This document shows, piece after piece, positions 1-1,068 of a stretch of DNA of 1,068 nucleotides. Origin of the DNA: a phage; the sequence record MN525560.1. One strand, given 5' to 3'. Made by a program: the position numbers and the translations under genes. Under the pieces are notes generated by a model, which made no database searches, was not told the origin of the DNA, and saw nothing but the letters and a program-made list of their open reading frames with translations. Within the stretch, counting starts at the first letter, position 1. Every line of letters begins with the position of its first letter.

Positions 1-1068
1 ATGGAGAAAATTATTTTTACTAAAGATCTTGTTGCTAATTCTGCTGTTGTTGCTGATCAGTGGAAACATCTTACTATTGATCGTAAAGTTTTTTGCAATG
101 CTGAGGCTGAGCTTGCTAAAACTTATGGTGTTAATGCTACTGCTCTTGTTACTAAAGATTATTGGCGTGATGTTGATAATGTTACTACTCGTGTTTTTCG
201 TAATGAGGCTGGTCAGGATATGATGGCTGATCTTATGGGTATTGCTGCTAATATTAATATTGGTAAAACTGTTGCTATTTCTCGTATTGCTTCTGATGCT
301 GGTAAAGTTGTTCGTACTCTTTCTGGTCAGGAGCCTGAGGATCTTGATAAAACTCGTTATGATTATACTGGTGATGTTATTCCTATTTTTAAAACTGGTT
401 ATTCTCGTGAGTGGCGTGAGCTTCTTGGTATGCAGTCTGAGGGTTTTGATCCTCTTCTTGATGATCAGGCTAATGTTACTTTTAATCTTCGTTCTGATAT
501 GGCTCAGTATCTTCTTACTGGTGATCAGACTCTTAATGTTAATGGTGTTTATACTGGTTATGGTATTACTAATCATCCTAATACTATTCAGGTTAATCTT
601 AATGCTTCTGGTGGTCTTAATATTGATCTTCAGACTGCTACTCCTGATGAGATTGTTACTTTTTTTAATCAGGATTTTCAGGCTATTCTTGATGCTCAGA
701 ATGTTTTTGAGCAGGTTACTCTTTGGGTTTCTCCTGCTGTTCGTCGTTCTTTTATGCGTCCTTATTCTGATGCTGCTGGTTTTAAAGGTGGTACTGTTGA
801 GCAGTATATTACTCAGTTTGGTAATGGTCGTATTGGTAAAATTGGTACTAATTTTCTTCTTACTGGTAATCATTTTGTTGGTTATGTTCGTAATGATATG
901 TATATTCGTCCTCGTGTTGCTCAGCCTGTTTCTACTTATGCTGCTGCTCGTGCTAATCCTCATGATAATTTTAATTTTCTTGTTTGGTCTGCTTTTGGTC
1001 TTCAGATTCGTAAAGATGCTACTGGTAAATCTCGTGTTTTTAATGGTTATGGTACTCAGACTCCTGTT
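1..1068 (+). CDS. Uncharacterised protein, 356 codons in frame +1 with no stop in the window (3'-partial or stop-stripped); recoded with one codon per amino acid. No family assigned; weak, unverified impression of a soluble beta-rich structural (e.g. virion/capsid-like) protein.
   Basis: Seen directly: ATG at 1-3 and 356 consecutive sense codons with no TAA/TAG/TGA in frame 1 through nt 1068; strict period-3 structure with one codon per amino acid. Translation: MEKIIFTKDLVANSAVVADQWKHLTIDRKVFCNAEAELAKTYGVNATALVTKDYWRDVDNVTTRVFRNEAGQDMMADLMGIAANINIGKTVAISRIASDAGKVVRTLSGQEPEDLDKTRYDYTGDVIPIFKTGYSREWRELLGMQSEGFDPLLDDQANVTFNLRSDMAQYLLTGDQTLNVNGVYTGYGITNHPNTIQVNLNASGGLNIDLQTATPDEIVTFFNQDFQAILDAQNVFEQVTLWVSPAVRRSFMRPYSDAAGFKGGTVEQYITQFGNGRIGKIGTNFLLTGNHFVGYVRNDMYIRPRVAQPVSTYAAARANPHDNFNFLVWSAFGLQIRKDATGKSRVFNGYGTQTPV. 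The protein has diverse, non-repetitive composition, unlike the Leu-rich off-frame ORF. The true start cannot be confirmed because there is no upstream sequence, and the product is unassigned because no search could be run. Confidence 0.85.
   Translation, partial: MEKIIFTKDLVANSAVVADQWKHLTIDRKVFCNAEAELAKTYGVNATALVTKDYWRDVDNVTTRVFRNEAGQDMMADLMGIAANINIGKTVAISRIASDAGKVVRTLSGQEPEDLDKTRYDYTGDVIPIFKTGYSREWRELLGMQSEGFDPLLDDQANVTFNLRSDMAQYLLTGDQTLNVNGVYTGYGITNHPNTIQVNLNASGGLNIDLQTATPDEIVTFFNQDFQAILDAQNVFEQVTLWVSPAVRRSFMRPYSDAAGFKGGTVEQYITQFGNGRIGKIGTNFLLTGNHFVGYVRNDMYIRPRVAQPVSTYAAARANPHDNFNFLVWSAFGLQIRKDATGKSRVFNGYGTQTPV

Follow-up and report, generated by a model that had tools for sequence, protein, structure and literature searches.

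What protein does this DNA encode, and is it one that is already known? The window, by which we mean the whole stretch of 1,068 nucleotides analysed here, was described in a first-pass annotation as coding for a 356-residue protein with no assignable family, a candidate uncharacterised protein whose length and composition gave a vague impression of a capsid-like component of a virion.

The reading frame and its translation

On the plus strand, frame +1 is open over the entire window (1-1068). It begins with an ATG, translates into 356 residues and contains zero internal stops. The terminal stop codon is missing; the natural gene in Escherichia phage C1 is 1071 nt long and ends in TAA. The translation, the codon table, the identity to the C1 protein and the match to PHROG 771, all described below, define this feature as the coding sequence of a major capsid protein, 356 codons long, recoded and with its stop omitted.

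Several things that the first-pass annotation had read from the translation stand. The 356 residues at 1-1068 do form one uninterrupted frame. The single cysteine noted there, TGC at nucleotides 94-96, is residue 32 and is the sole Cys of the protein. Acidic and basic residues are indeed roughly balanced (D+E = 38 versus K+R = 34; pI 5.66). By our rule of thumb, a 19-residue Kyte-Doolittle mean of about 1.6 is required for a membrane helix, and the highest such mean in the window protein is 1.11, in keeping with the statement that no membrane helix is present. The composition is led by Ala, Thr, Val, Gly, Asp and Asn, which agrees with the Gly/Thr/Asn/Val-rich stretches remarked upon.

The DNA itself is not a natural sequence. 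The first-pass annotation did not notice that the window uses one codon per amino acid throughout: in the codon table, 31 of 31 alanines are GCT, 24 of 24 leucines are CTT and all 30 valines are GTT. We know of no natural gene with such a pattern. The natural C1 gene specifies the identical protein and shares only 78.8% of its DNA with the window; 218 of the 226 mismatches fall at codon position 3, and GC content is 36.5% in the window and 52.6% in the natural gene. The single-codon usage and the third-position mismatches to the C1 gene mark the window as a capsid coding sequence that was back-translated or recoded synthetically, without its stop codon. Since the DNA is recoded, the DNA-level signals of the window carry no biological information, and conclusions drawn from its base composition, its choice of codons, its other reading frames or its regulatory motifs would be spurious. 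One can see this in the other frames. There are zero stops in frame -1 of the window and one in frame +2, and nucleotides 29-223 hold a Leu-rich open reading frame of 64 amino acids. We rejected the open frames and the short reading frame as genes: they are by-products of recoding, for the natural C1 gene has stops there (2 in frame -1 and 14 in frame +2).

A feature that is missing from the window may be mentioned here. Directly 3' of the natural C1 capsid gene, at about 10072-10100 of the C1 sequence, there is an apparent intrinsic terminator. The terminator-like element consists of an A-run, GGGGC-GAAA-GCCCC and TTT, and it would suit a strongly expressed late gene.

Family membership and relatives

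Profile searches, which the first-pass annotation had recommended, gave significant matches to DUF6260, to PHROG 771 and to capsid proteins in the PDB. The Pfam profile PF19774 (DUF6260) matches residues 45-348 (nucleotides 133-1044, plus strand) with E=1.4e-112 and 376.1 bits, versus a cut-off of 26.6, and the match spans profile positions 1-300 of 301; all seven aligned relatives match DUF6260 as well. The profile phrog_771, named 'virion structural protein' in the category head and packaging, matches residues 4-350 with E=4e-134 (profile positions 2-352 of 354). These profiles place the window protein in DUF6260 / PHROG 771. A second Pfam family, PF09950 (Major_capside), stays below its gathering threshold (16.4 bits versus 26.8, E=0.0058). 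It matches three of the seven relatives at E up to 1, with 8e-5 as the best value, and the score at most hints at a remote relationship.

A tblastn search of the window protein against 50,697 phage records found homologues in 339 of them, and in 337 of these at least 80% of the query is covered. Many of the 339 records name it a coat or major capsid protein, and several GenBank records say 'hypothetical protein'. The closest relatives are identical. The coat protein of Escherichia phage C1 (AYR02276.1, the product of ORF29 in MH717097 / NC_054651, Deseoctovirus C1) has 100% protein identity over 356 of 356 residues, and so has the coat protein of phage S192. Phages Bas77-81 of the BASEL collection follow with 99.2-99.7% protein identity, and in Bas78 the protein is annotated as 'major capsid protein'. 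These five are small siphoviruses of a Skatevirus-centred cluster with genomes of 46-48 kb, which depend on O-antigen as receptor (PMC11990801). Phage C1, too, falls into the Skatevirus-like cluster. Identities of 96-99% are found in many siphophages of Salmonella, Escherichia, Shigella and Klebsiella, including Skate, LPST10, Akira, IME207 and Vi II-E1. One group of Klebsiella phages stands at about 79%, and siphophages of Pseudomonas, Enterobacter, Pseudoalteromonas, Aeromonas, Mannheimia and Yersinia are at 24-35%.

The Sf11 capsid and the HK97 fold

In a phmmer search against the PDB, the best answer is 9ocb_A, 'Major capsid protein gp39' (356 aa), which matches residues 1-355 with E=2.7e-232. 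Sf11 gp39 and the window protein are 96.3% identical, with 13 differences in 355 residues, and only 5 of the differences lie within residues 46-355. The entry 9OCB is the capsid of the Shigella siphophage Sf11, described by Subramanian, Dover and Parent (J Virol 2025; PMC12724387) from a 3.4 A icosahedral cryo-EM reconstruction in which gp39 has a classical HK97-like fold and residues 46-355 are modelled. The features named there are an A domain, a P domain, an E-loop, a G-loop and an N-arm. The head has T=7 geometry and holds 415 copies of gp39, in 60 hexamers and 11 pentamers, and gp39 was found in Sf11 virions by mass spectrometry with residues 40-356 covered (PMC12724387). By comparison with chain A of 9OCB, residues 46-355 of the window protein (nucleotides 136-1065, plus strand) would be the equivalent of the HK97-fold body with its P domain, its E-loop and G-loop, and its A domain.

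Sf11 (Cedarrivervirus Sf11) and the source of the window protein share more than the fold. Both proteins have 356 aa, and both are encoded in the same gene order, including a gene for a 470-aa protein. The 13 substitutions set them apart, and so does the host, which is Shigella flexneri for Sf11 and E. coli for the window protein. With 96% identity to the solved 9OCB structure as the reason for assigning the HK97 fold, we have high confidence that fold and mode of assembly should be transferable from Sf11 gp39. A single-sequence AlphaFold2 model of the window protein reached a mean pLDDT of 33.6 and a pTM of 0.26, which is too poor for a fold search.

We are left with very little doubt about the overall answer, namely that the window is a back-translated major capsid protein gene from a Skatevirus-like small enterobacterial siphophage, with an HK97-fold product and a T=7 head as in Sf11. 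The window protein is an already known and structurally characterised kind of phage major capsid protein. Assembly would then proceed in the same manner: 415 copies would form a T=7 head around about 46 kb of dsDNA and the portal would take the twelfth vertex, as is established in Sf11 and as we infer here. The capsid-like impression of the earlier reader is borne out by the identity to the C1 coat protein and by the 96.3% identity to the HK97-fold protein of Sf11.

A second solved structure belongs to a much more distant relative. The major capsid protein of the Pseudoalteromonas siphophage TW1 (5WK1 chain A) matches residues 37-346 with E=1.5e-25, and a profile of the family improves this to E=1.1e-64. 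TW1 is far more divergent than Sf11 and has a marine host; the related phage H103 is 27-29% identical to the window protein.

Is there anything left to say for an uncharacterised protein without an assignable family? A scan of the window protein with NCBIfam profiles gave zero matches, Pfam still names DUF6260 a 'family of unknown function', and the 'hypothetical protein' labels in GenBank point the same way. Such labels weigh little against a full-length PHROG 771 match, 96% identity to the solved capsid protein of 9OCB together with the TW1 match in 5WK1, many annotations as coat or major capsid protein, and the cryo-EM and mass spectrometry already published on Sf11 gp39, a near-identical homologue. 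We regard this explanation as having practically no probability left. Close homologues with known function do exist, in the C1 coat protein and Sf11 gp39, and the claim of a protein without family is refuted by DUF6260, PHROG 771, the 339 phage records and the published Sf11 structure and virion mass spectrometry. Given 9OCB and 5WK1, the name 'major capsid protein, HK97 fold' could now take the place of the labels 'DUF6260', 'hypothetical' and 'virion structural protein'.

The HK97 fold is also used by shells that are not those of phages, and one could think of an encapsulin, or of the capsid of a satellite or a gene-transfer agent. After the two phage capsids, the next PDB matches of the family profile are in fact encapsulin EncA shells. 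These matches are not significant (E=0.38-1.1, with zero stretches passing alone). Moreover, complete siphophage genomes of 46-48 kb, from phages that were isolated as plaque formers, carry the gene for the identical protein in their head module, and the Sf11 homologue is the shell of a virion that has been imaged (PMC12724387). A non-viral shell protein is accordingly an extremely improbable explanation, and the phage major capsid protein is the one that we retain.

A Walker-A-like motif

Residues 83-90 of the window protein, ANINIGKT (nucleotides 247-270, plus strand), formally fit the Walker-A pattern of PROSITE, [AG]-x4-G-K-[ST], and the record of Vi II-E1 carries a PS00017 P-loop annotation at the homologous position. 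The first-pass annotation, which had recognised no definitive nucleotide-binding motif, overlooked this formal match. We consider ANINIGKT to be probably a chance match and not a nucleotide-binding site, because the distant relative P400 does not share the pattern and lacks its G-K. The Walker-A pattern of PROSITE is short and prone to false positives.

If ANINIGKT did bind nucleotides, the protein might be an NTPase, or else some other enzyme or an anti-phage defence protein, and the pattern and the P-loop annotation would speak for it. A search with PADLOC defence profiles found zero families matching the window protein at E up to 1, the NCBIfam scan was likewise empty, and the Pfam matches are to capsid families only. 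The lack of conservation of G-K in P400 counts against it as well, and the residues homologous to 83-90 belong to the model of the capsid protein in 9OCB. We give such a function hardly any credence at all. The capsid protein remains the preferred reading of these residues too.

The head module in natural genomes

The window is the capsid coding sequence alone, and gene context was read from natural phage genomes. In C1, the order is ORF31 (470 aa), ORF30 (decoration protein) and ORF29 (capsid). The product of ORF30 matches 9ocb_H, 'capsid decoration protein gp40', with E=7e-98, and belongs to PHROG 766 'head decoration'. The same arrangement of a protease-like gene of 380-470 aa, a decoration gene of about 150 aa and the capsid gene is seen in Sf11 and Bas78. 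It is also present in five of five distant relatives with 24-80% identity (Klebsiella phage ZCKp20p, Enterobacter phage CobraSix, Pseudomonas phage BUCT566, Pseudoalteromonas phage H103 and Yersinia phage P400). The neighbourhood of homologues had been proposed as a way to tell a morphogenesis module from a defence island; the homologues sit in the phage head module, directly after the gene for the decoration protein.

In Sf11, every threefold site carries a beta-tulip trimer of the decoration protein gp40, in the same arrangement as gpD on the lambda head, and the best structural match of gp40 is the capsid-stabilising protein of TW1 in 5WK1 (PMC12724387). By sequence, the TW1 protein (5wk1_X) is homologous to the C1 decoration protein with E=7.7e-5. 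The gene order in C1 resembles that of lambda, where C/Nu3, D and E correspond to protease/scaffold, decoration and capsid. Lambda gpD and the Sf11 decoration protein have the beta-tulip trimer and the threefold occupancy in common, and they differ in that the N-terminus of the Sf11 protein is apparently not anchoring to the capsid, unlike in lambda (PMC12724387).

These parallels do not extend to the sequence of the capsid protein. When our family alignment (A1) was compared by hhalign with lambda gpE, the probability was 0.4% (E=0.15), and with HK97 gp5 it was 0.2% (E=0.33), so that no similarity is detectable in either comparison. The link to HK97 gp5 and lambda gpE is one of fold and of the working of the head module, not of sequence family.

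The first gene of the three deserves a closer look. C1 ORF31, at 7119-8531 of the C1 sequence, is the equivalent of GenBank gp41 of Sf11 (28155-29567) and belongs to PHROG 760. The ORF31-type protein goes under the name of prohead protease in two GenBank records, and DUF2213 is noted on it in the record of Skate. Four of six ORF31-type members have sub-threshold matches to DUF2213. Weak matches to phrog_3017 (three of the six) and to phrog_530 (one of the six) were also seen, and both of these profiles are named 'head maturation protease'. In an alignment of ORF31-type members, His, Ser and Asp-His positions of the N-terminal half are invariant, with His111, Ser120 and His216 of C1 ORF31 among them, and the C-terminal tail resembles a coiled coil. 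A search with C1 ORF31 against the PDB gave zero matches, and profile comparison of the family with HK97 gp4 and lambda gpC detected zero similarity. The ORF31-type protein may be a fusion of protease and scaffold, an idea for which these features are suggestive only.

We also considered whether ORF31 might be the portal, as the Sf11 portal likewise has 470 aa, and rejected this. ORF31 has no PDB match, and the solved portal is the product of another gene, gp63 of the Sf11 GenBank record (DUF1073, at 38197-39609 of the Sf11 sequence), which matches the solved portal 9YIN with E=0 and adjoins the Mu-F-like gp62. Readers should be aware that the portal is named 'gp42' in Table 1 of PMC12724387, but gp63 in GenBank. 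That Sf11 has two different proteins of 470 aa, GenBank gp41 and gp63, invites confusion.

The start of the ORF31-type gene varies by annotator. The product is given as 470 aa in C1, Sf11 and HC6, as 428 aa in Skate, BS5, BUCT3377 and gmqsjt-1, and as 496 aa in Vi II-E1. The disputed part lies at 7119-7250 of the C1 sequence and at about 242-245 of four of the compared pieces. The extra N-terminal residues, about 42 in number, match a separate family, PHROG 3684.

The N-terminal segment and maturation

The authors of the Sf11 structure proposed that the N-arm of gp39 is cleaved (PMC12724387). By analogy with Sf11 gp39, residues 1-39 of the window protein (nucleotides 1-117, plus strand) are probably removed at maturation. 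This segment is identical to that of the window in eight of nine close relatives. Its removal would take Cys32 with it and would leave a Cys-free subunit of about 35.2 kDa that begins at Lys40, compared with about 39.6 kDa for the unprocessed chain.

What might do the cutting? The capsid proteins of HK97 and Sf11 have a common fold, and in both an N-terminal segment is lost at maturation, in Sf11 by the proposed cleavage of the N-arm. The segment proposed here is short, about 39 residues, in comparison with the delta domain of HK97, which has 103. A tentative suggestion, which we would sooner doubt than rely upon, is that residues 1-39 are a short propeptide cleaved by the upstream 470-aa PHROG 760 protein. 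On this view the upstream protein would combine protease and scaffold and stem from a prohead-protease lineage with no link to HK97 gp4 or lambda gpC that profile comparison can detect. If so, maturation could be pictured in the following way. The first 39 or so residues would be cut off, perhaps by the protein that the second gene upstream encodes, with its protease-like part and its coiled-coil, scaffold-like tail. The expanded shell would then be held together non-covalently by threefold trimers of the decoration protein, the product of the neighbouring upstream gene, in the manner of gpD on lambda. The capsid of HK97 is a covalent chainmail, in which isopeptide cross-links between Lys and Asn join the subunits. 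The presence of a decoration, or cement, protein suggests that the shell could be stabilised non-covalently in place of such cross-links.

A last observation concerns the variation within this part of the protein. Eight of the 13 substitutions in Sf11 fall in residues 22-44, that is, within 23 residues, and all of these are private to Sf11; Cys32 of the window, for instance, is Val in Sf11 gp39. One might suppose that the N-terminal 45 or so residues are a hot spot of variation. We rejected this, as the eight differences occur in Sf11 only and the eight other close relatives match the window exactly over residues 1-56. Residues 22-44 of Sf11 gp39, whose whole gene lies at 26615-27685 of the Sf11 sequence, could be a small patch of recombination in the segment that is presumed to be cleaved.
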